A DNA stretch of 64,000 bases from an uncultured Candidatus Saccharibacteria bacterium (GCA_964627095.1 CAZVKH010000001.1:8451-72450); one strand, 5' to 3'; shown: positions 15,824-30,039, counted from the stretch's first letter. Notes: generated from the sequence alone by a model not told the origin. Translations and numbers: made by a program.

Positions 15824-16348
15824 ATGTTGCAGTTGAGTAAAACATTGATGGATCGTCCTGTTATGAGTCTTCGTACCGGCGGCAGGGTAGCAACGGCAAC
15901 GGCGCCTATTATTAACCCTAATAACTTGAAAATAGAAGGTTGGTACTGCCAGGATCACTTTAGCAAGAATACCCTGGTGCTTTTAAGCCAGGATGTCCGT
16001 GACATAATTGGCCAAGGTTTGGTCATTAATGACCACGAAAACTTAAGCGAAGTAGAGGATTTGGTCAGGCTAAAAGACGTGCTGGACCTAAACTTTGAAC
16101 TCCTAGGCAAGCCAGTAGTAACTGTTAATAAGAAGCGCTACGGTAAGGTCAGTGACTTTGCGGTTGAAACAGAAACCTTTTACATCCAAAAAATTTACGT
16201 TAGCCAGTCGATTATGCGTAGCCTTAACGGCGGCAACTTAGGTGTAGATAGAAGTCAGATCGTTGAAATAACGCACCACAAAATTGTTATTCAAGATCCT
16301 CTTAAGCCCGTCAAAGCTTCGACTTCAACTGCTCCGGCCGTTGGCTAA
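15824..16348 (+). CDS. PRC-barrel-like domain protein
   Basis: MLQLSKTLMDRPVMSLRTGGRVA... and a second similar half. Start taken at the Met at 15824. Confidence 0.45.
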   Translation: MLQLSKTLMDRPVMSLRTGGRVATATAPIINPNNLKIEGWYCQDHFSKNTLVLLSQDVRDIIGQGLVINDHENLSEVEDLVRLKDVLDLNFELLGKPVVTVNKKRYGKVSDFAVETETFYIQKIYVSQSIMRSLNGGNLGVDRSQIVEITHHKIVIQDPLKPVKASTSTAPAVG

Positions 16349-16953
16349 TCTTCTACCGAATCATGTAGAGCGACTTTGATATCACCATAGTTGTAGCCCT
16401 GCCTTAATAGATAAGCGATAAGTTTTTGCGGATCTTGATAACGGCTCTGACTGCGTTTCTTTTCTATTACCTCTTTTAGAGCCGATGTTTCATCTCCCTC
16501 GTCTTCGGCCAAAGCGGCTTCGATGACCTCCTTATTAACATGCTTCTGCATAAGTTCCTGGCGTAGTCGACGCAGGGAAGTGGGCTTTAACAAGCGCCGA
16601 TTAGTAATCCAAGACTGGGCAAACTTAGCATCATCAATATAATCATATTCACTTAACTTGTTAAGTATATTATCGACCGTGGGGGAGTCATATTCTTTAC
16701 GCTTTAAATAATCTCTGACCTCCCACTCACTGCGTGGTCGCCTCGCAAGGTAATCCAGCGATCTCATAAATGCCTTGTCGAGCACGGCCGTCTGTTGCAG
16801 CTCTTCTAGCTCTTGCGTGTTGTAGTCTCGCCCAATCCTAATACCGGACTTCATTAACTCGGTTTCACTTAAACTGAATGAGTATTTGTCATCAACATAT
16901 ATTGAGTACCGACTTTTACGCTTTACCTGTTGCTTGATGTCAGTAATACGCAT
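16345..16953 (-). CDS. recX: recombination regulator RecX
   Basis: Three-repeat helical protein (RSEWEVRDYLKRK...) immediately downstream of recA. Confidence 0.8.
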   Translation of the reverse strand: MRITDIKQQVKRKSRYSIYVDDKYSFSLSETELMKSGIRIGRDYNTQELEELQQTAVLDKAFMRSLDYLARRPRSEWEVRDYLKRKEYDSPTVDNILNKLSEYDYIDDAKFAQSWITNRRLLKPTSLRRLRQELMQKHVNKEVIEAALAEDEGDETSALKEVIEKKRSQSRYQDPQKLIAYLLRQGYNYGDIKVALHDSVED

Positions 16954-16971
16954 TACTGCGGGTGCCTTAGT

Positions 16972-18003
16972 CTAGGCAGCCTTCTTGGCAGAGGCTTCAC
17001 GAACCTGGGCAGCTATCTTGTCTAATACTTTAGGGTTGGCTTCTAGATACTTCTTAGCAGCTTCGCGGCCTTGAGCTATTTTCTCGCCGTTATAGGCAAA
17101 CCACGCACCACTCTTTTCGACTATATTGTCTTCGACAGCCAGGTCAAGAGTATCGCCACTCACGCTGATACCTTGGTTGTACATAATGTCGAACTCAGCT
17201 TGACGGAAAGGTGGGGCAATTTTGTTTTTAACAACCTTGACGCGCACGCGCCCACCAACAATCTCTTCGCCCTGCTTAATCTGGCTGATGCGACGAATAT
17301 CCATACGAACGCTGGCGTAAAACTTGAGAGCGTTACCGCCCGTTGTTGTCTCTGGGTTGCCAAACATCACACCGATCTTCATGCGGATCTGGTTAATAAA
17401 TATGACCGTTACATTCGACTTGTTGATAACACTGGTTAGCTTACGCAGGGCCTGGCTCATTAATCGAGCCTGCAAGCCCATGTGTGAGTCACCCATGTCG
17501 CCCTCAATTTCAGCACGCGGCACAAGTGCGGCCACTGAGTCGATTACAATTAGGTCAACGGCATTACTACGCACGAGGGTTTCAACAATTTCGAGGGCTT
17601 GTTCACCACTATCTGGCTGTGAAAGCAAAAGATTAGCTGTATCGACACCGATGCGCTTGGCGTAGGCCGGATCAAGGGCATGCTCGGCATCGATGAATGC
17701 AGCCGTGCCACCAAGTTTTTGGACTTCGGCGATGGCATGCAAGGTCATGGTTGTCTTACCGCTTGACTCTGGACCATAAATTTCGACAACACGGCCTTTG
17801 GGAATACCACCACCAAGTGCTAAGTCTAACGACAGGCTACCAGAAGGGGTGCACTCCACGTGAGTAGCGTGGGCTTCACCCAACTTCATGATTGCACCTT
17901 TACCAAATTGTTTTTCGATTGTTTCGACAGCGAGGCCTAAGGCTTTGGATTTGCCTTGACTGGCTGTATTGTCGGGTTTTTCTGAATTAGCTTTAACGGC
18001 CAT
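16972..18003 (-). CDS. recA: recombinase RecA
   Basis: GPESSGKTT, the IDSVAAL loop region and FINQIR. I take the ATG at 18003, preceded by GGAGG, rather than the GTG at 18015. Confidence 0.95.
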
Positions 18004-18181
18004 GACTACCTCCACTTATGTTAGTGGGTAGTATTATAGCTTCCGCCCATGTTACTGACAATGAGTCGTATTTGCCACCTCTGTTATAAATACTAACTTT
18101 TAATTAAGAGTTAATATTACTCGTCATGCCCAACAAGCATAACGAATATGCTACAATAACGCCTAGGAATACATGTGTTGA

Positions 18182-18685
18182 ATGACTAAGAAGAATCTTC
18201 GTACCGTTAGCAGCAATCAGGATGGGTTCACCGTCCCTGAACTGCTTTTGATGGTTCTTATAATTATAATCCTGTCTGGACTTGTTCTGACCAACTATCA
18301 GGCCCAACGCGCCAAGCAAAGAGACAGCCAGCGGGTTCAAGACATTAACTTGATCGACAACAAGCTCGAAACCTACTACAACGACAAAAACGCCTACCCA
18401 GCCACCTTTTCTGCCCAAGACTTGTTTAATGTTGATGAAGCGGTCTTAAAAGATCCCGATGGCAAGATGATCGTTTTTCACCCAGCGGTGGGTGACTCGG
18501 TGGCGGCTCAGGCTGTTACCAACCCGAACGAAAAAAGTGCTTCGAGCTACCTCTACATACCTTATCCAACTGGCTGTACCAATGCTGCCAATAATTGCAC
18601 CGGTTTTGTACTTAAAACTTTCGTTGAAAAGCCCACCAGCACAACTCCCAACCCATACACCAAGGTTGGCATTAATAACAACTAA
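18182..18685 (+). CDS. type IV pilin / pseudopilin
   Basis: Prepilin leader ...NQDG|FTVPE with Glu5, a hydrophobic N-terminal helix and a C-terminal Cys pair (CTNAANNC). Confidence 0.75.
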   Translation: MTKKNLRTVSSNQDGFTVPELLLMVLIIIILSGLVLTNYQAQRAKQRDSQRVQDINLIDNKLETYYNDKNAYPATFSAQDLFNVDEAVLKDPDGKMIVFHPAVGDSVAAQAVTNPNEKSASSYLYIPYPTGCTNAANNCTGFVLKTFVEKPTSTTPNPYTKVGINNN

Positions 18686-19266
18686 CGGCGACGGTTTCTA
18701 GAAGGATCGCTGTCTAGATATTTTTGACGGGCGTCTAATACTACTTTGCCGTAAAAGTTTGGTCGCGGGCAGTACTTAAAGTTAAAGTTTGCCTGCTCAC
18801 CGGCGGTTTCTACAATCAGATTGCCAAAACCAAAAATAGAGGCAAATATGCCCCGCTGCTTGGCGGTCACATCTTCTACGTTTGCTAGTGATAGTTCCGA
18901 GACTTTGCGATTAAATAGACCGTGCTGTAATACCTGGGTCAGATTCTTATTGCTTATGATAAGTTTGCTCTGCCTATAAATGTATGTGTAAAGCATTAGT
19001 ACCATCCAAACAGCGATTGCAATCAAGCCAATCACCACCGACAAAAATAGACGTAATTGTGAAAGCTGTTCGTTAGGGAACATAATCGGCGCCAGGAGCA
19101 TTAGCATAAATGAGCCCGCCACAAAACCAACTCCAACTTGGCAGTAAACTACAATAAGCCCGAATGAATGACGCTTAACTTCATAAAGTAAGGTTTCGCC
19201 TTCACTAATACCTTCTATAGTATTTTCGACGGTGTCTGGTGGCAGTGGGGTATCTGGATTCATCAC
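18682..19266 (-). CDS. membrane-flanked bacterial PH-domain (DUF304/YdbS-like) protein
   Basis: Two transmembrane helices followed by ...VEDVTAKQRGIFASIFGFGNLIVETAG. Confidence 0.55.
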   Translation of the reverse strand: MMNPDTPLPPDTVENTIEGISEGETLLYEVKRHSFGLIVVYCQVGVGFVAGSFMLMLLAPIMFPNEQLSQLRLFLSVVIGLIAIAVWMVLMLYTYIYRQSKLIISNKNLTQVLQHGLFNRKVSELSLANVEDVTAKQRGIFASIFGFGNLIVETAGEQANFNFKYCPRPNFYGKVVLDARQKYLDSDPSRNRRR

Positions 19267-19271
19267 TGCTA

Positions 19272-20303
19272 TTATAGCAAGATTTCTTGTTCTTCAGGAG
19301 TGTCCGGAGTTTTACCTAGGTGCTTATAGGCCTTGCGTGTAACCTTGCGGCCGCGCGGAGTACGCTCCAGTAGCCCAATCTGCATAAGATAAGGTTCGTA
19401 AAAGTCTTCGATAGTAGAACGCTCCTCGGCTGTAAGGGCAGCTAATGTTTCGACACCAACTGGGCCACCTTGATAGTTGTCGATTATCGCCATTAAAAGC
19501 ATGCGGTCGGCTGGGTCAAGCCCCAGATCATCAACTTCTAACAGCCCCAGAGCTTGGGTACTAATTTCGGCGTCGATGATGCCGTCGCCATTAATGTCGG
19601 CGTAGTCACGTACTCGCTTTAGTAAACGATTGGCGATGCGCGGCGTAAGCCGAGCGCGTTTGGCTAGATCTTGGGCGGCGGCCTTATCAATCTTTATGCC
19701 AATGATCTTGGCGGCCCGTTCAATAATCTGCTGGACTTCGTCTGGAGTGTAGAACTCTAAGCGGTGTATCATGCCAAAACGATCACGTAGGGGAGCGGCC
19801 AAGGCACCAGTTCGGGTGGTGGCGCCAATAATTGTAAACTTGGGCAAATCTAAGCGCAGGCTGCGGGCGGTTGGGCCCTTACCAAGCATGATGTCGAGTT
19901 TGAAGTCTTCCATGGCACTGTAAAGAACCTCTTCGACCGAACGGTTCAAGCGGTGGATTTCGTCGATGAACAGAATATCGCCGTCCTGCAGGTTGGTTAG
20001 TAGGCTAGCCAAATCACCGGCCCGCTCCACAGCCGGGCCACTGGTGACGCGAATGTTGGCTCCCATTTCGTTGGCAATAACAGTTGCCATGGTCGTTTTG
20101 CCCAGGCCTGGTGGACCGTACAACAGAATATGGTCGAGCGGCTCTCCACGTTTGGTGGCGGCCGCAATCGCCAATTGCAAATTCTGTTTTAAACGCTTCT
20201 GCCCAATATAGTTGGTGAAGTCATGGGGGCGGAGTGTAATCTCTAACTCGGCCTCAATTGGGTCTTCTTCATCCTTGGTACTTACAATTCGTTCAATCGC
20301 CAT
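19272..20303 (-). CDS. ruvB: Holliday junction helicase RuvB
   Basis: [17 protein letters not shown] and a typical RuvB C-terminal winged helix. Confidence 0.95.
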
Positions 20304-20304
20304 A

Positions 20305-20886
20305 TTATTTTCCGGTTAAGGCTCGTTTAATGCGATCCTCAGTTGGGATGTCTTGCGGGATGCCAGCTAGGGCAGTGGCAGCATCGGGAGCAGTGTAACC
20401 CAAGGCCATCAAAGCCTCGACAGCTTCGTCCTGCACCAAACTTGCATCCGACTGTAATATACCCAAACTATCTAAATCAACGCCAGCCAAACCAACTTTA
20501 TCTTTTAGCTCAACGACAACTCGTTCGGCGACACGTTTTCCAACACCGTTAGCTTGCTGAATGAACTTGGTATCGCCACTTGCTAGTGCTCGCCTCACCT
20601 CACCCACTGTGCCAATACTTAACATGTTAAGTGCCATTCGTGGACCAATGCCATTGACTGAAAGGAGTAGTTCAAACAAATTTTTAGTTTCTAGGCTGCA
20701 GAAACCGTACAGGTCGTAACTGCTCTCTCTTATGTGTTCGTAGATGTAGAGCTTGGTCACCTGCTCTGGCGTCAGCTTTCCAAAGTCTTCAGCCGTTACT
20801 AGCAGCCCATAGCCAACCCCGGCGACGTTTAGAACAACGACGTCTTTCAGTTTTTCGGATACAGTCCCCTCTAACGTTGCAATCAT
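20305..20886 (-). CDS. ruvA: Holliday junction DNA-binding protein RuvA
   Basis: MIATLEGTV..., GVGY and HhH motifs ([19 protein letters not shown]). The start at 20886 avoids overlap with ruvC. Confidence 0.9.
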
Positions 20887-20908
20887 ATGATACTTATTAT
20901 CGCATATA

Positions 20909-21382
20909 TTACCGTAAAGCGGTGCTACAACAGATGGCCGCTGCCAATGCATCGGCAGCATCGTCCGGTTTTGGTATTTCTTTTAGATTGAGTAGCATAC
21001 GCACCATCTCTTGAACCTGCTTTTTGTCGGCTTTGCCATAGCCAGTCAACGACTGTTTTATTTGCTGAGGCGTGAACTCGTGCAGTTCCAGGCTATGCTG
21101 CTTACCGCAGAGCAGAACTACGCCACGGGCCTGTGAAACACTCATTGCCGTTGTAACATTCTGGGCGAAGAAGAGCTTTTCTACCGACATAACTGTTGGT
21201 TGGGTGCTTTTGATGATCTCGTGCAGCTCGTCATAAATTGTACTTAGACGCTCGCTATCGGCCTGCTTAACTGGCGTTCGGATGACACCGGCGTCAACCA
21301 GCGAAAGCTTCCCTTGCTTACTGACTTCAACGACGCCGAAACCAAGAATACCGGTACCTGGGTCAATCCCTAAAATTCTCAT
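20909..21382 (-). CDS. ruvC: crossover junction endodeoxyribonuclease RuvC
   Basis: MRILGIDPG..., EKLFF and a C-terminal DAADALA. Confidence 0.9.
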   Translation of the reverse strand: MRILGIDPGTGILGFGVVEVSKQGKLSLVDAGVIRTPVKQADSERLSTIYDELHEIIKSTQPTVMSVEKLFFAQNVTTAMSVSQARGVVLLCGKQHSLELHEFTPQQIKQSLTGYGKADKKQVQEMVRMLLNLKEIPKPDDAADALAAAICCSTALR

Positions 21383-21401: not shown

Positions 21402-22928
21402 CTAGTTGGTTATTAGGCTTTTAATACGTTGCACCAGTCGGCTTATTTCTTGGCGGTATTCATACGCGCCGTAGCTAACGATGATTATCATGACAGCCCC
21501 GATGATTACTATGTGACCCTTGCGTGGAGCAACAGTTTTATCGCCCAGAACCTTACCTGTTGTCTTGGCCACAATTTTGCGGCAGCGGCCAGTAGTGGGG
21601 TTGCGCTCTTGGCCGGCCTCGCAGGCTTTTTGAGTGCTGGCAGTTTCGATTTTGCGACAACGATTGGTCGCTGGATTCTTTTCTTGCCCAACCGGGCAGG
21701 TAATGGCTGCTAAGACTGCTAGCTTGCGGCAACGGCCAGTTTCGGGATTACGTTCTTGATCAGCATTGCAAGCCACCAAAACAGCAGATTCTTCGTTAGA
21801 CTTGCAGCGTCCGGTGGCAGGGTTGCGGAACTTACCAGCTGGGCATGGTTCTGCCTCGCCTTGCTCGGTTTGCTGTGCTGATTCACTTACGAGTAAGTTT
21901 TCCAAAGCTGGCGTTGGCTGTTTGGTTAGCGCCCAGAATCCGTTTACCAAAGCCCAGGCTTCGTCATCGGATAGGGCTGGGTAATTAACTGATGTTGTTT
22001 CAGTTATAGTCTCGAGGGTTACCACACCGCCACTGTTACCCAACTGAAGAGCCGAGACTGAGTAGTAGACAGCCTTGTATTCGTGGGCCTGTATTGTGGT
22101 TTGTTCAGGAAAAATATACTCCTTGGTGGCCGTGCGAAGCTTGCAGCCATGTAGTGATTGAGTTTGGTCGGTTGGATTATATATTTCTATAAATTCGCCA
22201 AGTGTATCGTCGCCGGCTGGGTTGGGCAAAATTTCGTTAATCTGAATGCCCTGGCAAGTTGGCTGTGAACTCGTGGGTGGCGGCACCGAAGGTGGCAGAC
22301 TTGGTGGGGTTACGCTAACGCTATATATATTGCCACCTTGCGGTGTGGCCGGCTTATAATTGGCAACACCATCTGACTTGTTGTACAGACCATTGGTTGT
22401 TGGTCTTTGTAGCGTATAGCTAGGTCCCGCTACGGCCGACACCTTATCGCAGCCAGTAATAGTAGTCGCCGAGCCCCAAGCCACGCAGTCGACCATGGTC
22501 GTGCCGTTCATCAACCTAACATGTCCGCCAGACTTAGCTAGAAATCCAGAAGTTGATACATCACCAGCACCAAAGATACTATCTGGTGCAACCGGGTAAT
22601 ACCCGTCGTGCTCCCAGATTCCATGGCCATTACCGCTTATTTGTCCGGAAATTGTGTCGATAATTTGGGTGGCGGCAGCTGTGCCATTATGCGAAGCTGA
22701 CAGATATTCTAGTCGCCAACCGGTCATATTAACCGCTGCGCCCGTAGTATTTGTTAGCTCAACGAATTCCTGTCGTGGGTATTCTACCCCAGCGCTGTCG
22801 ATAAAGCCGGTCTGAACTTCGGTAATAAGAACTGATGGCTGGACGGCGCCAACTGGCGAAGCCATACACAGCTGTAAGACAACTAATGTAGTGGCGCCAA
22901 GGCTTAGTGCGGTTAGATATTTCTTCAT
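21402..22928 (-). CDS. secreted, membrane-anchored protein with two lamin-tail-like domains and four Cys-bracketed repeats
   Basis: Signal peptide MKKYLTALSLG... LTD-like segments (VLITEV...VELTN and IQINEILPNP...EFIEIYNP). Four repeats of C-x3-Q-E-[RK]-N-P-x-T-[GN]-R-C-[RK]-K, then a C-terminal transmembrane helix. Confidence 0.65.
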   Translation of the reverse strand: MKKYLTALSLGATTLVVLQLCMASPVGAVQPSVLITEVQTGFIDSAGVEYPRQEFVELTNTTGAAVNMTGWRLEYLSASHNGTAAATQIIDTISGQISGNGHGIWEHDGYYPVAPDSIFGAGDVSTSGFLAKSGGHVRLMNGTTMVDCVAWGSATTITGCDKVSAVAGPSYTLQRPTTNGLYNKSDGVANYKPATPQGGNIYSVSVTPPSLPPSVPPPTSSQPTCQGIQINEILPNPAGDDTLGEFIEIYNPTDQTQSLHGCKLRTATKEYIFPEQTTIQAHEYKAVYYSVSALQLGNSGGVVTLETITETTSVNYPALSDDEAWALVNGFWALTKQPTPALENLLVSESAQQTEQGEAEPCPAGKFRNPATGRCKSNEESAVLVACNADQERNPETGRCRKLAVLAAITCPVGQEKNPATNRCRKIETASTQKACEAGQERNPTTGRCRKIVAKTTGKVLGDKTVAPRKGHIVIIGAVMIIIVSYGAYEYRQEISRLVQRIKSLITN

Positions 22929-23045
22929 AGTGCAGCCATAGTAAAACGACCACAACAACAGCGTCAAAACTATCCAATTAACAGTTAATTAATAGTTAAT
23001 ATTACCCTATTGGACCTTAATTAAATCTAGGCGAATTATTAACTT

Positions 23046-23777
23046 TTAATTAGCTAGAAATTCTTCTGGAATATCAAAATTGACGTGCGTATTGCTAACG
23101 TCATCAATGCTATCAATGGCATCCATCAGTCGTAAAATTTTACCGGCGGTGGCTTCGTCTTCCACGGTAACGGTATTATTGGGAACATAGGTTAGTTCAG
23201 CTTCAGTAATTTCTAGGTCAGCCGCCTTAAGGGCATCACGAACCTTACCCAGTTCTTTGGCATCGGTGTAGATGACTGACTCGTTTTCTTCTTCCTGGAC
23301 ATCCTCAGCGCCAGCGTCGAGCGCAGTTAGCATTAACTCGTCTCCAACGCCATTAACCCGAATCATGCCTTTGTGATCAAACTGGAAGGCGACAGCGCCC
23401 TTTTCGGCAATACTGCCACCATGTTTACTAAAAGCCAGTTTTACTTCTGGATAAGTGCGGTTGATGTTATCGGTAGCAACCTCAACTAAAATGGCGACGC
23501 CACCTGGCCCGTAACCTTCGTAAAGTAATTCCTGAATCTGTTCGCCACCTAGTTTGCCGGAACCACGGTCAATCGAACGCTGAATATTGGCCACCGGCAT
23601 GTTTGATGCTTTGGCACGGTCAATTGCCAAGCGTAAGCTGAAGTTCATATCGGGGTCGGCACCAGCGCGGGCGGCCACTGCAATGGCATTACCAAGTTTA
23701 GTAAACAAAGCACCACGAGCGGTATCTTTGGCGCCCTTTTGACGTTTGATTGTTGACCACTTAGAATGACCTGACAT
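23046..23777 (-). CDS. yebC: YebC/PmpR-family DNA-binding regulator
   Basis: MSGHSKWSTIKRQKGAKD... is the canonical YebC N-terminus. Confidence 0.9.
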   Translation of the reverse strand: MSGHSKWSTIKRQKGAKDTARGALFTKLGNAIAVAARAGADPDMNFSLRLAIDRAKASNMPVANIQRSIDRGSGKLGGEQIQELLYEGYGPGGVAILVEVATDNINRTYPEVKLAFSKHGGSIAEKGAVAFQFDHKGMIRVNGVGDELMLTALDAGAEDVQEEENESVIYTDAKELGKVRDALKAADLEITEAELTYVPNNTVTVEDEATAGKILRLMDAIDSIDDVSNTHVNFDIPEEFLAN

Positions 23778-23782
23778 ATCTG

Positions 23783-25207
23783 TTATTCTAGCACATTTTG
23801 GACGTTTCGGCGAACGGCAATTCGTTTGAGCAACATTACCACAATAACAATCGCACCATAAGCTATGGTCATACTATAGACATCTATGGAAAGTTCAGCG
23901 GCGGCATGCGGGAGCCGGCTAAATTGGGCCGAGATGTCGATCATGTAGGTGAGCAGGGTCTTGGCGGGCCAGGCCAAAAGCCCAGAAACCGGCAGCCACG
24001 ACAGAGGACCTAAACCGGCGATCAAGGTTAACAACATGGCTAGCGGCACCAATGGAACAACCAAGACGTTGGCAACAAGACCGATAATCGATACCCGGCC
24101 AAATATATACATGATTATAGGCACGGTCATAACTTGAGCTGACACGGTTTCGGTAACTAGGCTACCAAGCAGCTTGGGTGACTTACGCCGCAGCCCACTT
24201 ATAGCCGGGGCAATTACCAACACTCCAAAGAATGCCAGGAATGACAAGTACCAGCCAATGTCCGACCAAATATAGTATGGGTTCCAAGCAGCTGTAATGG
24301 CGGCAGCCAGAGCCAGTAGTAACACCGGCTTAAACTGACGACCATAATACCAAGCTAACAAACTTAGGCTGCTAACTAGTGCGGCTCGTATTATTGAAGC
24401 ACTTAGGCCAGTGAGCATTACAAACACCAGCATTAATGCGCTGGCTGCTACCACAATCTGAAACTTTGAGCCCTTCTGCAAAAGCTTGCGGACGGCCATG
24501 ATAATGATCGTTAGGTTATAGCCCGAAACAGCCACCAGGTGCGTTAAGCCGGTGACCGAAAGCTGGTCATTGACTTCTTTTGGGATGGTACTTCTCTGAC
24601 CCAATAATAAACCGGCTCCAAAAGATGCTTCGGGTTCGGGTATTGAAGACTGCAGGCCGGCAATAAACCGCCGCCGCACCACATCGAGCCGTGACTGATG
24701 GCGCTGCGTAACTTTAATGTTGGCAAAACTCATTCGAGCCTGGGCAGCACCGCGCGTGGGGCTGAGCTTACCAGAGACTTGTAGTTGATCACCGCGGTAG
24801 ACCATTGATTCACCGCGGCCCTCGACCTTGATCTTTCCAAGCAAAGCAACAGTTTCAGGCTGCCTAACAACAAGCTGGTTGGCATCAAAACTTAACATAC
24901 CTTTGTCGCTATATACGGCATCGGTTTCGGCCTGTGCCGTAACTACGACTGGCCTAGCAAACAATGACTTATAACGAGACAGCTGGTACATATAGGCAGT
25001 ACCCCTAAATAGCCCTAACTGGAATCCACAACACAATAGCAGCAAACAACTAAGCACATTCTGCCAACGATAAACTGCCGCCATGAAAACAAAACTTGCA
25101 GCCAGCAGCAAAGTTTGCCGATATTCAATTCGGCGGGCCGCCACCAAGCCAAGTAAGACAGCCAAGAAAAAGCCCACCAGTTGGGTGTTTTGTTTAAAGT
25201 AGTTCAC
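23783..25207 (-). CDS. comEC: ComEC/Rec2 competence channel (membrane domain only)
   Basis: OB-like N-terminal part plus a polytopic core with TGLTHLVAVSGYNL and LTGLSASIIRAA. No metallo-beta-lactamase domain. Confidence 0.75.
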   Translation of the reverse strand: MNYFKQNTQLVGFFLAVLLGLVAARRIEYRQTLLLAASFVFMAAVYRWQNVLSCLLLLCCGFQLGLFRGTAYMYQLSRYKSLFARPVVVTAQAETDAVYSDKGMLSFDANQLVVRQPETVALLGKIKVEGRGESMVYRGDQLQVSGKLSPTRGAAQARMSFANIKVTQRHQSRLDVVRRRFIAGLQSSIPEPEASFGAGLLLGQRSTIPKEVNDQLSVTGLTHLVAVSGYNLTIIIMAVRKLLQKGSKFQIVVAASALMLVFVMLTGLSASIIRAALVSSLSLLAWYYGRQFKPVLLLALAAAITAAWNPYYIWSDIGWYLSFLAFFGVLVIAPAISGLRRKSPKLLGSLVTETVSAQVMTVPIIMYIFGRVSIIGLVANVLVVPLVPLAMLLTLIAGLGPLSWLPVSGLLAWPAKTLLTYMIDISAQFSRLPHAAAELSIDVYSMTIAYGAIVIVVMLLKRIAVRRNVQNVLE

Positions 25208-25241: not shown

Positions 25242-26750
25242 TTAACTTTCGCTGAAGACTTTTTGGACTAATTCAAGTTGCCTTTGGTTAGTCGGATCAA
25301 ACTTAGCCTTAAATACTAGGTCAAGCATCGCCGGGTCGTTTTTATACTTTTCCCAAAATGTGACAACTCGCTGCTTACCCTCTAAGTATGCCAAGTCTTT
25401 GTTAAATGTAAGTAGGTGATGCTCCCCGTCAGAAAGTCTATCATCAACGCTGGTTGGCGTGCCTCTAAATATTCGAACGCAGCCCGCGTAAGTGTTGTTT
25501 TGAGCGGTAGAAATTTGTTTTTCAGTTGGCTCTTCGCCGCTTTGAGCTTTTATCAACACTCGTGCCCGCCAAAGTGTTTCGAATACCTTGCGAAAGTCAT
25601 TTCCTTCGTAAGCTAAACCGTAGGCTGCATATCGCTCCAGATTCGGTGCATCCCAACTCGTATCCTCACCTGTTGTTGCTTTCTCGCAAGTCGAAGCAAA
25701 ACCTTCTTCGAAAGTCAGGTAGTCACTTACTTCGCCAGGTTCGGCAGCCGTGTATAGCCCCGTCCCAACCACCGGAATATCTGTCTCGATGCCACTCATG
25801 GCCCGGCCAGCATGAACTATGTATTCGTGCACTACTTTACTTAACATCTCTTTTGCAGAAGAAATAGGACCACGCTTGCCACCAATTACTACAGCCATCT
25901 GTTCTGTTTCCCAAGAAAGTGCAGTCGCCGATGGGTCGATAAGCACTTGGATTCCAGAACTATTATCAGGGTCACGCTGTTGATGAATAAGACTAAAGAT
26001 AGCGTACATATCATCGACGGTAAAATGCTGTTCTTCCGTCGGTCTTGGCTTAACATTTTCGTCCCAATACCGTAATATAGTCGGCTCAAGATCTGGGTTA
26101 TCGCTCAAGACTTTCTCATCCAGATAATCGAGTAGTTCTTGAGGTAGTGGCTTAAGTGGCTCGGCATCATTACGCTTAAGTGGAGATACGACGATAGATT
26201 TGCCTGCAACTTCTACCACAAAGCCATGTTCTAGCTCTTGCTTGAGTTGTTGCCCAACTCCAACCAACTCCTTGCCATCAATCTGACGCCAAATTTCACT
26301 TACTACGCCAGCGTACAAGTCTTGATCGGGTTTGCCGTACAGCTGTTCGTTCAGGTTTTGAACATAGCTAGCCCGGCGATCAAGTTCGTCTTCTGACATC
26401 GTAAAGTGGCCATCAATAAGTTCTTTGGCGCTTAGCAACCAATACATCTCGGCCATTCGATAAGCTGCGCTGTCCCAAATTGCCTCTTTGGCAGTCTGGT
26501 CGGGCTGCGCCTCGGCTAGTTTTAGAACCTCACCCAGAACAGATATGCCATTTCTTAGTTCGTTTTCATCTAAAACTGGGTAATCAAGGGTGGGGTTAAC
26601 AACATCGCCTGCGAGAAAATCATCTCTTTGTTGAGCCCGCTCATCTTTGTCGCCCGCCAAACGTTTATACGACTGAAATGCGATTTCAGGAGTATTGAGA
26701 GGATGGAGTTGTTCGCGTAGCGAGACTCCTTCAAGAAGTATCTCTGACAT
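25242..26750 (-). CDS. DUF1704 / MATCAP-like putative metallo-carboxypeptidase
   Basis: HEYIVH (HExxxH) and a downstream FEEGFA (QEGLA-like) motif. I take the ATG at 26750, 6 nt after a TATAAT. The longer track ORF would run through a repeat and a tRNA terminator. Confidence 0.55.
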   Translation of the reverse strand: MSEILLEGVSLREQLHPLNTPEIAFQSYKRLAGDKDERAQQRDDFLAGDVVNPTLDYPVLDENELRNGISVLGEVLKLAEAQPDQTAKEAIWDSAAYRMAEMYWLLSAKELIDGHFTMSEDELDRRASYVQNLNEQLYGKPDQDLYAGVVSEIWRQIDGKELVGVGQQLKQELEHGFVVEVAGKSIVVSPLKRNDAEPLKPLPQELLDYLDEKVLSDNPDLEPTILRYWDENVKPRPTEEQHFTVDDMYAIFSLIHQQRDPDNSSGIQVLIDPSATALSWETEQMAVVIGGKRGPISSAKEMLSKVVHEYIVHAGRAMSGIETDIPVVGTGLYTAAEPGEVSDYLTFEEGFASTCEKATTGEDTSWDAPNLERYAAYGLAYEGNDFRKVFETLWRARVLIKAQSGEEPTEKQISTAQNNTYAGCVRIFRGTPTSVDDRLSDGEHHLLTFNKDLAYLEGKQRVVTFWEKYKNDPAMLDLVFKAKFDPTNQRQLELVQKVFSES

Positions 26751-26792
26751 ATACATATTATAACATAATAGAATGAGTTTTACGATGCCACT

Positions 26793-26868
26793 GGGGCAAC
26801 GCACATCTACGGCCTTGCTCGGAATGCATTCCTGCGCATGGCCTTGATGACCGAACCCCGGCTGCGCC
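26793..26868. repeat. copy A of the tRNA-adjacent structured intergenic element
   Basis: 65/76 ungapped identity (hand count) to 53731..53806. Internal palindrome GGAATGCATTCC (26821..26832) and hairpin GAACCC/GGGTTC (26853..26878). Confidence 0.55.
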
Positions 26869-26895
26869 GTTTGGGTTCTCGGCGCGTGCTCCATG

Positions 26896-26920
26896 AAAAA
26901 AGCCGAACACAAGGTTCGAC
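26896..26920 (-). terminator. rho-independent terminator of tRNA-Lys
   Basis: On the minus strand, GTCGAAC-CTTGT-GTTCGGC followed by TTTTTT. The imperfect pair is G.U on minus only. Confidence 0.6.
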
Positions 26921-27606: not shown

Positions 27607-28512
27607 TTAGGCGCCGACGCGGTCGCGCTTGCCGCGCTTGCTCTTGGCATTTTGTTCGACGTAGTCGATAATCTTGCCGGCAATATTGCGGCCGGTCACT
27701 TTTTCAATAGCAAAGCCAGGGCTGGCGTTAACTTCTAGTACTAATGGCCCGCGCTCGGAACGCATCAAGTCGACACCAGATATTGGCAGACCCATGGCCT
27801 TGGCGGCCCGTACGGCTGTCTTCTTTTCTTCGTCGGTCAGCTTAACCACCGTACCTTCACCGCCCTGGTGTAGGTTTGAACGGAAGTCATCATCTAGGCT
27901 TTGGCGCTGCATACTAGCTACAACCTTGCCATTAACTACAAAGGCCCGGATGTCGGTACCGGCCGATTCGGCCACAAATTCCTGCACCAAAAAGTTCACG
28001 CCTTCTACATAGAAAGCTTGCATTACCGCCTCGGCAGCTTTGCGAGTTTCGGCTAGTACGACGCCCTTACCGTGAGTACCGCGGGCCACCTTAATAATTA
28101 GTGGTGCACCGCCGGCTTGTTCAATTAAGTCCTCTACCTGGGCAGTTTCGCGGGCAAATACAGTTTTAGGGATACCAACGCCAGAACGAGCTAGAATCTG
28201 AGCGGCGCGCAGTTTGTCGCGCGTGCGGTTGATCGCTAGCGAACTAGCGGTACTAAAAACGCCCTGCATCTCGAATTGGCGCACAATTGAAGTACCGTAC
28301 TTGGTTAAGTTAGAGGCAATGCGCGGGATAATAACGTCGATGTCGTTTATTTCTTCACCTTCGTAACGCACGACTGGGTTGCCTTGTTCTAGAGTTACAT
28401 AGCACTTGGCATAGTTAATAACGCGGACGTTGTGGCCACGTTCTTCGGCTTCGGCCTTGATTCGCTTGGTTGAAACGTTATCAGGGCCCTTCGACAAAAT
28501 AGCTATGTTCAT
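27607..28512 (-). CDS. rimK: RimK-type ATP-grasp alpha-L-glutamate ligase
   Basis: Collinear by eye with E. coli RimK along the whole length (IPRI, RQFE, RDKLR, GAPLIIK, GVVLAETR, DIR..VV, DFRSNLH.GG, GVDL, GPLVLEVNASPG). Confidence 0.9.
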   Translation of the reverse strand: MNIAILSKGPDNVSTKRIKAEAEERGHNVRVINYAKCYVTLEQGNPVVRYEGEEINDIDVIIPRIASNLTKYGTSIVRQFEMQGVFSTASSLAINRTRDKLRAAQILARSGVGIPKTVFARETAQVEDLIEQAGGAPLIIKVARGTHGKGVVLAETRKAAEAVMQAFYVEGVNFLVQEFVAESAGTDIRAFVVNGKVVASMQRQSLDDDFRSNLHQGGEGTVVKLTDEEKKTAVRAAKAMGLPISGVDLMRSERGPLVLEVNASPGFAIEKVTGRNIAGKIIDYVEQNAKSKRGKRDRVGA

Positions 28513-28521
28513 ATTCCGACC

Positions 28522-28935
28522 TTACTTATTTATTCTGTTTACGTCAACTAGCAAGTTATTCTTGCGGATAAAACGACGACCAATTAACACCGGCCACTTC
28601 ATCTCGCTGCGATCGGCCAAGGTTAATAGGATGTCGTATTCATTACCATCAAGAATGATTTTAGTATCTATGGCGTAACGACGCTCTTCGTGACCATTCG
28701 AGCTAGTGACGCGTTTTATGCGATATTCGTTTACGGCAATAACCTTTTCGGGATGGTCAAAGGGCGAAAAGTAGAGCGTTTTGACACCGTCCACCACTTC
28801 TTTACGAATGTTGGTAGCATGAAGCGCACCGGTGTAGGCACCGGTATCAATTTTGGCGACAACCTTAGTAATACCAAACTCTGGGAAGCTGGCTTTTTCG
28901 AAGGCACCAATAACTTTTTGCGGTTCTTTAGTCAT
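28522..28935 (-). CDS. DUF785 retropepsin-like protease ('ATP-dependent zinc protease' family, RimB-like)
   Basis: KIDTGA (D-T-G-A aspartic signature) and a LIGRRFI tail. Directly upstream of rimK. Confidence 0.75.
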   Translation of the reverse strand: MTKEPQKVIGAFEKASFPEFGITKVVAKIDTGAYTGALHATNIRKEVVDGVKTLYFSPFDHPEKVIAVNEYRIKRVTSSNGHEERRYAIDTKIILDGNEYDILLTLADRSEMKWPVLIGRRFIRKNNLLVDVNRINK

Positions 28936-29004
28936 AGTTATCCCACTTACGCTTAAACTATCTAAATTATAGCATATTTCTTTATATTTTTCAATACTTT
29001 GCGC

Positions 29005-29121
29005 CTATTTTGGGGCGCTGGCAACCCTGGCGTAAACCAAGACGATCGCTACAACCAGTATAACAAGCAGGAATATCATAAGTGGGATAAAGCCATCTTG
29101 ATTAAGCTTGAGCCGTTTCAT
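29005..29121 (-). CDS. 38-aa prepilin-leader-like micro-protein
   Basis: MKRLKLNQDGFIPLMIFLLVILVVAIVLVYARVASAPK shares NQDGF plus a hydrophobic helix with the pilin at 18182, but has no Glu5 and no globular domain. TATGAT lies 6 nt upstream of the ATG. Confidence 0.35.
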   Translation of the reverse strand: MKRLKLNQDGFIPLMIFLLVILVVAIVLVYARVASAPK

Positions 29122-29136
29122 GGTATAATCATACCA
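29121..29136. promoter_or_regulatory. near-palindromic bidirectional -10 region TGGTATAATCATACCA
   Basis: TATAAT (+, 29124..29129) faces the GGDEF gene. TATGAT (-, 29128..29133) faces the 38-aa ORF. Confidence 0.4.
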
Positions 29137-29166
29137 GAATCGACCAAATAAAAACGACAACAAACT

Positions 29167-30039
29167 ATGAGCCAAGATCAACCTCAACAACCTCAGGAAG
29201 CTCCAGCTGAGTATGCCGACGTCTGGCACCAGCTCGACCCAGGCACGAAACTGCTTTTGTCGGACCCCGAAGGCTTAATACCAGCCGAGCAGCCACCTTA
29301 TAATCCCGATCCACCAGAAAGTCTCGGTTTAATCGGCAGCGTTGAAAAAGATGCTTATAAATATGCCTATACAGCAGCTCGCGGACTAGTTGAAAAGGAT
29401 GTCTTGAAAAAAGAAAACCTAATAACCACCCAAGAAAGAGACCAAGCCCAACTGGCCGCCAAAGAGGCTCGTTACGAAGCCACACATGACAAGATGACTG
29501 GGTTTTATAATAGAGCTGGTTTTGATATAGCCTTACAGCGCATGATAGACACCAACCCTGATGCCGATATTGGCATACTATATATTGATATTGATAACTT
29601 CAAATCTATAAATGATTCCGAAGGGCATGATGGAGGTGACGCCTTCCTTAAGGAGACCGTTGCTTGGTTGCGAGAAGTCAATGATCACCCCGAGCAAACC
29701 ATGGACAGCCAAATCGATCCGGCCGAACAAGATATGATCATGGCTAGAGTCGGTGGCGATGAGTTAGTCATAGCTATAAACTACAGCCGGGTCAACCGGC
29801 CCATAGACGAAAGCGTCGAAAAACAACTGCTAACTGATCGCGACCGCTTATACAAAGGTTTTAACCAGTTCATGGAAAAACAACATTACTACCTACTTAC
29901 CGAATTCAATGTTGGTGTCTCAATTGGCGTAGCCCACTGGCGCCTGGGCATTGACCCAGATAAACTTGTTATTCGTGGGGATAAAGACATGTACCGTCAA
30001 AAGGCTATTAATAGACGTGGCGGTGATCGGCGTCGTTAG
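29167..30039 (+). CDS. GGDEF-domain protein (motif GGDEL)
   Basis: DKMTGFYNR, DIDNFKSINDSEGHDGGD and RVGGDELVIA. The N-terminal ~100 aa is unstructured and coiled. Confidence 0.75.
   Translation: MSQDQPQQPQEAPAEYADVWHQLDPGTKLLLSDPEGLIPAEQPPYNPDPPESLGLIGSVEKDAYKYAYTAARGLVEKDVLKKENLITTQERDQAQLAAKEARYEATHDKMTGFYNRAGFDIALQRMIDTNPDADIGILYIDIDNFKSINDSEGHDGGDAFLKETVAWLREVNDHPEQTMDSQIDPAEQDMIMARVGGDELVIAINYSRVNRPIDESVEKQLLTDRDRLYKGFNQFMEKQHYYLLTEFNVGVSIGVAHWRLGIDPDKLVIRGDKDMYRQKAINRRGGDRRR

Follow-up and report, generated by a model that had tools for sequence, protein, structure and literature searches.

A Lamin Tail Domain Surface Protein with a Cysteine-Hairpin Stalk Is Encoded beside a Nuclease-Less ComEC in Saccharibacteria

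The subject of this study is a 508-aa surface protein with two lamin tail domains (LTDs), encoded in a 64,000-nt stretch of DNA (the window) from an uncultured Candidatus Saccharibacteria bacterium (GCA_964627095.1 CAZVKH010000001.1:8451-72450), where its gene shares the interval 21402-25207 with that of the ComEC/Rec2 channel. In this protein a known Ig-like module is joined to an unnamed and ancient cysteine-bracketed hairpin repeat; the family is confined to one class, and the gene stays with comEC in relatives. We tentatively propose, with confidence that falls somewhat short of even, that the LTD protein is an extracellular accessory subunit that holds DNA for the Saccharibacterial ComEC system, a system without ComEA and without the ComEC nuclease domain. 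The candidate phyla radiation (CPR, Patescibacteria) makes up a large share of bacterial diversity, and a nuclease-less ComEC is found in most of its members, as is, again in most, the lack of an annotated ComEA. A class-wide, unnamed surface protein that remains linked to comEC through rearrangements offers a concrete candidate for the extracellular component still missing from the uptake machine. With this candidate, the question of what binds DNA outside CPR ComEC becomes testable in Southlakia epibionticum, where the gene order is shared and genetics is in place; to our knowledge, natural transformation is the sole genetic tool so far for Saccharibacteria. Should epibiotic growth instead depend on the protein itself, it would be a conserved surface target, so that the answer is informative either way.

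Results and Discussion

Architecture of the LTD protein

The open reading frame (ORF) of the LTD protein spans 21402-22967 on the minus strand, with its likely ATG at 22928, and from N- to C-terminus the translation has a signal peptide, a pair of LTD domains, the four Cys-bracketed repeats and, near its end, a membrane helix. Its parts, delimited with the help of an AlphaFold2 (AF2) model built with 108 homologues in the alignment (mean pLDDT 85.9), are as follows.

21402-22928, minus strand: coding sequence of the LTD/Cys-hairpin surface protein, 508 aa plus stop, by translation
22842-22928, minus strand: signal peptide, about aa 1-29, MKKYLTALSLGATTLVVLQLCMASPVGAV, from a reading of the sequence and an AF2 helix at aa 3-21 of low pLDDT; cleavage site presumed
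22356-22832, minus strand: LTD domain 1, aa 33-191, Ig-like, acidic; PF00932, AF2 beta-sandwich of pLDDT >90, Foldseek
21924-22244, minus strand: LTD domain 2, aa 229-335, Ig-like, acidic; PF00932 (best stretch aa 223-298), AF2 pLDDT >90, invariant columns
21576-21845, minus strand: basic stalk of four Cys-bracketed hairpin repeats, aa 362-451; conservation, one AF2 hairpin per repeat
21459-21518, minus strand: C-terminal transmembrane helix, aa 471-490; AF2 helix, with the conserved motif G-Y-G-x-Y-E-Y-R at its end
21405-21458, minus strand: short basic cytoplasmic tail, aa 491-508; AF2 helix at aa 492-507, net charge +3

PF00932 matches the protein in two stretches at 83.6 bits, against a cutoff of 34.3, and is present in 120 of the 120 top homologues, while Foldseek retrieves the Ig folds of lamin A/C and lamin B1 from the PDB with a probability of 1.00 and target TM-scores of 0.6-0.68. 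We place the protein in the LTD (PF00932) family. An earlier note on this DNA, made from the sequence alone, had described a secreted and anchored protein with two lamin-tail-like domains and with its repeat array just before the membrane anchor, and both descriptions hold: the two PF00932 stretches are accompanied by a signal peptide and a membrane helix, and this helix (aa 471-490) comes after repeat 4 (aa 436-451). In the AF2 model the two Ig-like beta-sandwiches are joined by a Pro-rich linker. A conserved Cys148-Cys160 pair belongs to LTD domain 1 and a conserved Cys225-Cys262 pair goes with LTD domain 2; indeed, every Cys of the mature protein belongs to a conserved pair. The ectodomain is strongly bipolar in charge, the LTD part being acidic and the stalk basic (net charge +8 and isoelectric point, pI, 9.4 in the window protein; family means +8.4 and 9.5). 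In full-length alignments Y486, E490 and R492, located at the predicted membrane-cytoplasm junction, are invariant or nearly so, which suggests a specific partner rather than a passive anchor.

The Cys-hairpin repeat

The four repeats, all on the minus strand, read as follows.

Repeat 1: aa 362-377, nt 21798-21845, CPAGKFRNPATGRCKS
Repeat 2: aa 387-402, nt 21723-21770, CNADQERNPETGRCRK
Repeat 3: aa 411-426, nt 21651-21698, CPVGQEKNPATNRCRK
Repeat 4: aa 436-451, nt 21576-21623, CEAGQERNPTTGRCRK

Four tandem copies had been noted before at 21576-21845, and these coordinates are exact; the copies are, however, not strictly head-to-tail, as the 16-aa cores are spaced by Ala/Thr/Ser-rich stretches of 8-10 residues to give a period of 24-25 aa. 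In short form the consensus is CxxGQERNPxT[N/G]RCRK, and across the family the 16-mer reads C-[P/K/A]-x-G(85%)-Q(71%)-E(61%)-R(97%)-N-P(83%)-x-T-[N 72%/G 24%]-R(99%)-C-R(79%)-K(46%), the arginines at positions 7, 13 and 15 being conserved at 97%, 99% and 79%, respectively. Unbiased alignments over the full length put the conservation of the repeat's Cys, Arg, Asn and Thr residues at 90% or more, up to invariance. All of the 120 top homologues carry the repeat, in 2-6 copies per protein with a mode of 4 and with copy numbers of 3 and 5 common, and repeat 1 retains a K-[Y/F]-R signature of its own family-wide.

AF2 renders the array as four separate two-stranded beta-hairpins (pLDDT 73-85) with flexible spacers and without packing into one domain. 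Given the conserved Cys pairs and the common odd copy numbers, the simplest reading is that each repeat would be one self-contained disulfide loop, and the disulfide-closed basic loops that had been predicted earlier are compatible with the modeled hairpins and the net charge of +8. Zinc binding by the repeat cysteines is unlikely, with only two Cys per repeat and 3 and 5 copies common. The DNA copies of the repeat differ at synonymous sites, on which ground we rejected both a recent expansion at the DNA level and an artefact of assembly, and TRF detected no DNA-level repeat in the region; together these results indicate that the array is ancient and under purifying selection.

Searches of Pfam and NCBIfam with the whole protein and with the repeat region returned LTD alone above threshold, so that the earlier statement that the repeat is no named family is essentially right. 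Sub-threshold matches to TNFR_nem, TNFR_c6, 2C_adapt, CBM_14 and NCD3G were set aside as generic Cys-hairpin matches; the closest Pfam model is TNFR_nem (PF25314), which gives a half-model match in 27 of the 27 members tested and stays below threshold in the window protein. A PDB sequence search with a single repeat gave no match, and the sole PDB match of the four-repeat profile, actinohivin (E 0.8), was dismissed as a chance likeness to a ricin-type RNxxTGRC stretch. No second motif-bearing protein occurs among the other ORFs of the window or of 85 related loci, and the tip motif is rare, being found outside LTD proteins just once, in a spurious ORF, among ~600,000 ORF residues of the related loci.

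When 1.84 billion cluster representatives were searched with the repeat profile, 1830 clusters matched at E<=0.001, 1158 of them at E<=1e-10, and nearly all of the 1830 encode proteins of 500-650 aa with the repeats near the C-terminus and the same architecture. None of the 150 best matches is a fusion with ComEC, a nuclease or any known DNA-binding domain. Four outliers were examined: a version with 3 LTDs and 6 repeats; a eukaryote-like Cys-rich protein of generic similarity only; P0217 (L086:6430-9897), with 1155 aa and about ten copies of TCPEGQVRNATTGLCETP, a hairpin of the same type with a different tail; and P0247 (L088:4712-7060), with 782 aa, a signal peptide, Ser/Thr-rich regions, no LTD, several C-x-x-G-K-F-L-N-P-x-T-N-R-C-K hairpins and a C-terminal anchor of the same type (FQFRHEI). 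Judging from P0247, stalk and anchor may form a module that is reusable with other heads.

Linkage to comEC

ORFs, translations, Pfam and NCBIfam all give the minus-strand order ComEC, YebC, the LTD protein, RuvC, RuvA and RuvB, in agreement with the earlier note. The interval 21402-25207, to which that order had been assigned, does run from the LTD gene to ComEC, but ruvCAB lies outside it. The ComEC neighbor has the Competence membrane domain (PF03772, 161 bits), and Pfam finds no Lactamase_B, the C-terminal metallo-beta-lactamase nuclease domain, in the window ComEC or in any of its 120 best homologues. This agrees with the report that fusion of ComEC to a metallo-beta-lactamase domain is essentially absent across CPR (Meheust et al. 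2019, PMC6744442).

The clustered protein database holds more than 2229 homologues of the LTD protein, one of which (P0001) is 100% identical to it; those with a name are called 'lamin tail domain-containing protein' and come from Saccharimonadales, with one from a bin labelled Parcubacteria. A species-level scan, with one genome per species and a 20-sequence alignment as query, located relatives in 490 species-level genomes. Eighty loci (L-numbers) were fetched, nearly all titled Saccharibacteria, Saccharimonadia or Saccharimonadales. Two bins are labelled otherwise, 'Candidatus Limnocylindria' (L020) and 'Candidatus Parcubacteria' (L027), and both have a Saccharibacteria-type gene and synteny; errors of binning or labelling are the probable explanation, rather than true occurrences outside the class.

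Flanks were annotated with profiles made from the window's own proteins, and 75 of the 80 loci had enough upstream sequence to be evaluated. ComEC lies upstream of the LTD gene on the same strand at 64 of the 75, against 43 loci each with YebC and RuvC and 38 each with RuvA and RuvB as same-strand neighbors. The earlier note had set a lack of linkage to comEC in relatives as the refutation of its reading, and linkage is what we find. Thirty-nine loci have the window's order ComEC-YebC-LTD, usually with RuvC next; at 19, the LTD gene directly follows ComEC with neither yebC nor ruv beside it on that strand, these genes being either missing from the flank or located on the other strand a few kb upstream; and at 6, other genes intervene between an upstream ComEC and the LTD gene. 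At L003 the JGI gene calls have comEC and the LTD gene overlap by 4 nt. These counts identify ComEC as the persistent partner, rather than the yebC-ruv operon that the LTD gene interrupts in the window, and passive synteny is a poor fit for such persistence, since yebC and ruvC have been lost from the neighborhood far more often. YebC is described in recent work as a factor for the translation of polyproline stretches, and a linkage of yebC through the Pro-rich inter-LTD linker was considered and rejected, with PPP in only 3 of the 39 yebC-linked homologues.

In 18 of the 19 directly abutting loci a DUF1524 (GmrSD_C, His-Me finger) nuclease gene is found immediately upstream of ComEC, and overall a DUF1524 gene is in the same cluster at 20 of the 75 loci. 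These nucleases carry an N-terminal membrane or signal segment, that is, they are predicted to be membrane-anchored or secreted. Such a separate nuclease could stand in for the missing nuclease domain of ComEC; no DUF1524 nuclease gene was found in the window. The same-strand nuclease-ComEC-LTD cassette is seen in many soil and freshwater Saccharibacteria, for example at L003:5645-9686, and further at L005, L016, L018, L021, L023, L025, L033, L034, L039, L040, L042, L044, L053, L055, L056, L067, L071, L072 and L078.

A relevant experimental system comes from S. epibionticum, whose natural transformation depends on ComEC (Wang et al. 2023, PMC10633639) and whose genome shares the gene order ComEC-YebC-LTD-RuvC, the LTD orthologue being SEML1_0775. 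Its genome tables list no ComEA, K02237, PF12836 or PF10531. Table S2 of that study assigns to SEML1_0775, by DPAM, two Ig-like domains and a 'TNF receptor-like' segment; the LTD gene is unmentioned in the main text (PMC10633639), and our literature search found no paper that treats the LTD/Cys-hairpin family in CPR.

Proposed role and alternatives

In the mechanism that we propose, the LTD protein would be exported by Sec and held in the cytoplasmic membrane, probably beside ComEC, by its C-terminal helix with the YEYR junction. Its membrane-proximal stalk of 2-6 disulfide-closed beta-hairpins would present, on each hairpin, two nearly invariant arginines around the N-P-x-T turn, followed by R/K-K, and the resulting polycationic strip would bind DNA that arrives at the channel mouth, a task that falls to ComEA in other bacteria. 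The two acidic LTD Ig-like domains would point outward and serve as a spacer or as a dock, for instance for the DUF1524 nuclease or a pilus. This proposal rests on the upstream, same-strand position of ComEC, kept more often than that of YebC or RuvC; on a pairing that outlives rearrangement, down to abutting and overlapping genes; on the nuclease-channel-LTD triad of the abutting loci; and on a ComEC without Lactamase_B here and in its best homologues. It rests likewise on a competent S. epibionticum with the same gene order and no listed ComEA, on a repeat region that is basic across the family with R7, R13 and R15 conserved, on the conservation of Y486, E490 and R492, and on the fusion of LTDs, in other proteins, with extracellular nucleases and with metallo-beta-lactamase domains of the ComEC type.

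Several observations weigh against the LTD protein as a ComEC partner. At 11 of the 75 loci there is no ComEC within 10 kb, the neighbors including Mur ligase, PBP1 and UvrC, and a search for cryptic ComEC genes in these 11 loci found none. The LTD part, with a family mean net charge of -25 and a pI of 4.3, is by its charge an unlikely DNA binder, two moderately conserved acidic residues are retained in each repeat, and the LTD of the Shewanella nuclease ExeM is largely dispensable for DNA degradation in vivo (PMC6085458). Mobile or virion-type proteins carry the hairpin module as well, given that the P0217 locus is phage-like (Phage_lysozyme, a BclA_C-like gene and a >3000-aa gene with an LPD38 domain), and the P0247 gene adjoins a protein O-mannosyltransferase gene on an 8.7-kb contig from which ComEC is absent. 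Finally, comEC, comF and dprA are dispensable for growth of S. epibionticum, and a pure ComEC feeder would be expected to be dispensable too, whereas SEML1_0775 was called NE/ES/ES at T0/T1/T2 in transposon sequencing (Tn-seq), with normalised reads of 451, 104 and 13 (PMC10633639). In the same data ComEC and YebC are NE/NE/NE, and RuvC, the PBP after it and RuvA are each NE/GD/ES (PMC10633639). The transposon resistance cassette has both a promoter and a terminator (PMC10633639), and since the downstream ruvC, PBP and ruvA genes matter for growth, the essential call on SEML1_0775 may be polar.

In the main alternative, which is possible though on the whole unlikely, the LTD protein serves the cell envelope or the interaction with the host and has no part in DNA uptake. 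Its basic stalk would span or bind the anionic wall (peptidoglycan-linked polymers, lipid head groups) and show the acidic LTDs for adhesion or envelope organization, and the comEC linkage would reflect inherited order or shared regulation. An orthologue that is class II essential in epibiotic co-culture next to a dispensable comEC would be accounted for, as would the flagging of the SEML1_0775 family as 'core' and 'Patescibacteria enriched' (PMC10633639), shared with many envelope proteins of the Tn-seq screen, the acidic LTDs, and the recurrence of the hairpins in P0217, a phage-like structural protein, and in P0247, a surface protein that has no LTD. Several loci have peptidoglycan genes close by: in S. 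epibionticum a PBP gene adjoins ruvC, L015 has PBP1, and L063, L064 and L068 have Mur ligase. LTDs have also been proposed to target proteins to membranes (Mans et al. 2004, quoted in PMC6085458). What this alternative does not readily explain is ComEC as the most persistent neighbor, in two or more arrangements, at times so close that stop and start codons overlap and frequently accompanied by a nuclease gene, and the essentiality call on which it leans may, as said, be polar.

An essential LTD protein and a dispensable ComEC could also be reconciled by a scaffold for scavenging, which captures host-derived DNA or RNA for surface nucleases whose products enter through transporters other than ComEC, the ComEC neighborhood then reflecting a shared substrate and not a machine. 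CPR bacteria lack nucleotide biosynthesis (PMC10633639, PMC6744442), fusions of LTDs to extracellular nucleases are known from ExeM, Hvo_1477 and the Izemoplasma DNA-degradation loci, and a DUF1524 nuclease is encoded in the cluster at the 20 loci mentioned above. We nevertheless judge such a scaffold quite improbable: the LTD protein itself has no nuclease domain and reaches just 16 bits with the ExeM model NF033680 (cutoff 1300), the window has no nuclease gene, and the DUF1524 nuclease of S. epibionticum, SEML1_0519, is encoded elsewhere in the genome and is non-essential (NE/NE/NE; PMC10633639). The scavenging through ComEC that the earlier note had invoked fares no better, as ComEC-based nucleotide scavenging is argued against in PMC10633639. 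Lastly, the hairpins might be a ligand-free, rigid TNFR-like spacer of adjustable length, with the LTDs doing any binding. A copy number that varies from 2 to 6, an N-P-x-T readable as a turn-forming motif, TNFR_nem as the nearest (half-model) Pfam match in all 27 members tested and the DPAM assignment of a 'TNF receptor-like' segment in the S. epibionticum orthologue would all agree with this, but a mere spacer would have no need for arginines conserved at 97-99% around every turn, for R/K-K past the second Cys or for the K-[Y/F]-R signature kept family-wide in repeat 1, and we consider it very improbable.

Neighboring genes and intergenic sequence

The genes around the LTD gene, and a candidate regulatory site, are listed below.

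23783-25207, minus strand: ComEC/Rec2 channel gene, 474 aa; PF03772 161 bits, DUF4131/OB weak at 20.6 bits, NCBIfam ComEC_N-term
23046-23777, minus strand: YebC/PmpR (TACO1 family) gene; PF01709 and PF20772, NF001030 300 bits; starts 5 nt past the ComEC stop codon
22938-22967, minus strand: promoter-like site TTGACG-18-TACTAT, ending 10 nt before the LTD ATG; a candidate from a consensus scan of the sequence, which is not evidence of function
20909-21382, minus strand: RuvC gene; PF02075 175 bits, NF000711; 19 nt past the LTD stop codon
20305-20886, minus strand: RuvA gene; RuvA_N, HHH_5 and RuvA_C matches begin at ORF residue 26
19272-20303, minus strand: RuvB gene; RuvB_N, AAA_lid_4, RuvB_C; NF000868 502 bits
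18682-19266, minus strand: bPH_2 membrane protein gene
16972-18015, minus strand: RecA gene
16345-16953, minus strand: RecX gene

The RuvA ORF reaches 20961, with its likely start at the Met at 20886. Downstream of the LTD gene the minus-strand recombination run (16345-21382) is longer than first noted, comprising RuvC-RuvA-RuvB, the bPH_2 protein, RecA and RecX; an ORF of no assigned function lies within it on the plus strand (18182-18685), and the order of the run is repeated at L001. Upstream of ComEC are a tRNA-Lys and a 556-aa ORF (25242-26912, minus strand), the latter directly adjacent and with only weak, sub-threshold matches to MATCAP (PF08014) and a QEGLA-motif family (TIGR02421); it is apparently no conserved neighbor, different genes being found upstream of ComEC at L001. 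A few kb further upstream, at 27607-30039, are genes for a RimK ATP-grasp protein, a RimB-like 'Zn_protease' and a GGDEF diguanylate cyclase, and the RimK/RimB-like pair is near the LTD gene also at the rearranged locus L003 (12605-14301).

An AT-rich gap of 117 nt (22929-23045) separates yebC from the LTD gene and includes an 11-nt tandem repeat, AATTAACAGTT, in 2.3 copies (22976-23000). No obvious Shine-Dalgarno sequence is seen ahead of the LTD ATG. A transcript that begins just ahead of the LTD start codon would fit the promoter-like site, and the LTD transcript may be leaderless or nearly so.

Comparison with known systems

The LTD protein is not a ComEA, a TNFR, a 2C_adapt protein, an HU/IHF protein or an ExeM-type nuclease, as tests for the defining features of each family came out negative; it does have partial likenesses to all five. 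With 2C_adapt (PF08793), a domain of large DNA viruses, the repeat shares a C...NP-x-TGR core, but its second Cys is elsewhere, 7 of the 35 model positions are aligned, the score is 16.8-19.2 bits against 22, and 4 of 27 members match. Like the TNFR modules (PF25314, PF00020), the repeat has a pattern C-x2-G-x3-N-x2-T-x2-C and, in the model, forms what would be a disulfide-closed beta-hairpin. The TNFR cysteine-rich domain has about six Cys and three disulfides per ~40 aa, packed into an elongated ladder, whereas the repeats have two Cys, for one presumed disulfide, per ~25 aa, with the hairpins split by flexible spacers; scores against PF00020 and PF25314 are 20.1-21.4 bits against 27-29.4 and cover model positions 17-33 of 34 only.

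A DNA-handling context for LTDs is known from extracellular nucleases and ComEC-type hydrolases, namely from Shewanella ExeM, an extracellular nuclease with an LTD (PMC6085458), and from haloarchaeal Hlac_1867/ComA (Halorubrum) and Hvo_1477 (Haloferax) (PMC5118699). As in these proteins, the LTDs of the Saccharibacterial protein are, by prediction, secreted and envelope-anchored in such a context; unlike them, it is without any catalytic domain and has a Cys-hairpin stalk, and the DUF1524 nuclease is a separate gene, present in some relatives only. With NF033680, which calls for LTD, OB and EEP together, the match is 16.1 bits against 1300, comprises the N-terminal LTD only and includes no nuclease domain.

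The repeat tip R-N-P-x-T-G equals the arm tip of HU (1HUE: ...AARKGRNPQTGEEM...), and in the AF2 model it likewise sits at the turn of a two-stranded hairpin. The tip proline of HU and IHF intercalates into the DNA minor groove, an intercalation that Rice et al. in 1996 and Swinger et al. in 2003 are said to have described. Homology to HU/IHF is not detectable: Bac_DNA_binding (PF00216) gave no match at E up to 10, and neither the repeat profile nor one repeat alone retrieved HU from the PDB. HU and IHF have a dimeric alpha-helical body with long beta-arms and share with the LTD protein the 6-residue tip motif only; the strands of the repeat are, moreover, 3 residues long, Asn follows Thr in 72% of repeats, and Pro is replaced in 17%. 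The likeness may be that of a common turn motif, and we take it as a mechanistic hypothesis, not as evidence. Carried furthest, the analogy would make the stalk a new kind of extracellular DNA receptor, in which disulfide-stapled, proline-tipped hairpins (R-N-P-x-T-[G/N]-R) grip duplex DNA as the HU/IHF arms do, beside a nuclease-less ComEC, replacing ComEA throughout Saccharibacteria, and in which the LTD pair recruits the DUF1524 nuclease in lieu of a metallo-beta-lactamase domain; to this full picture we give little credence.

A functional parallel is ComEA, the membrane-anchored double-stranded DNA receptor of competence systems. Neither of its helix-hairpin-helix (HHH_3) and SLBB domains is found in the LTD protein by Pfam or NCBIfam, and the anchor of the latter is C-terminal, not N-terminal, and accompanied by two LTD Ig-like domains. 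Yet, like ComEA, the LTD protein is by prediction a single-pass, membrane-anchored and extracytoplasmic protein, is encoded with comEC and has a basic module near the membrane, and it may work like ComEA; the features that point to binding of double-stranded DNA and to a part in transformation are the charge of the stalk (+8, pI 9.4) and the gene linkage. A lineage-specific periplasmic substitute of this kind has a precedent in ComH of Helicobacter pylori.

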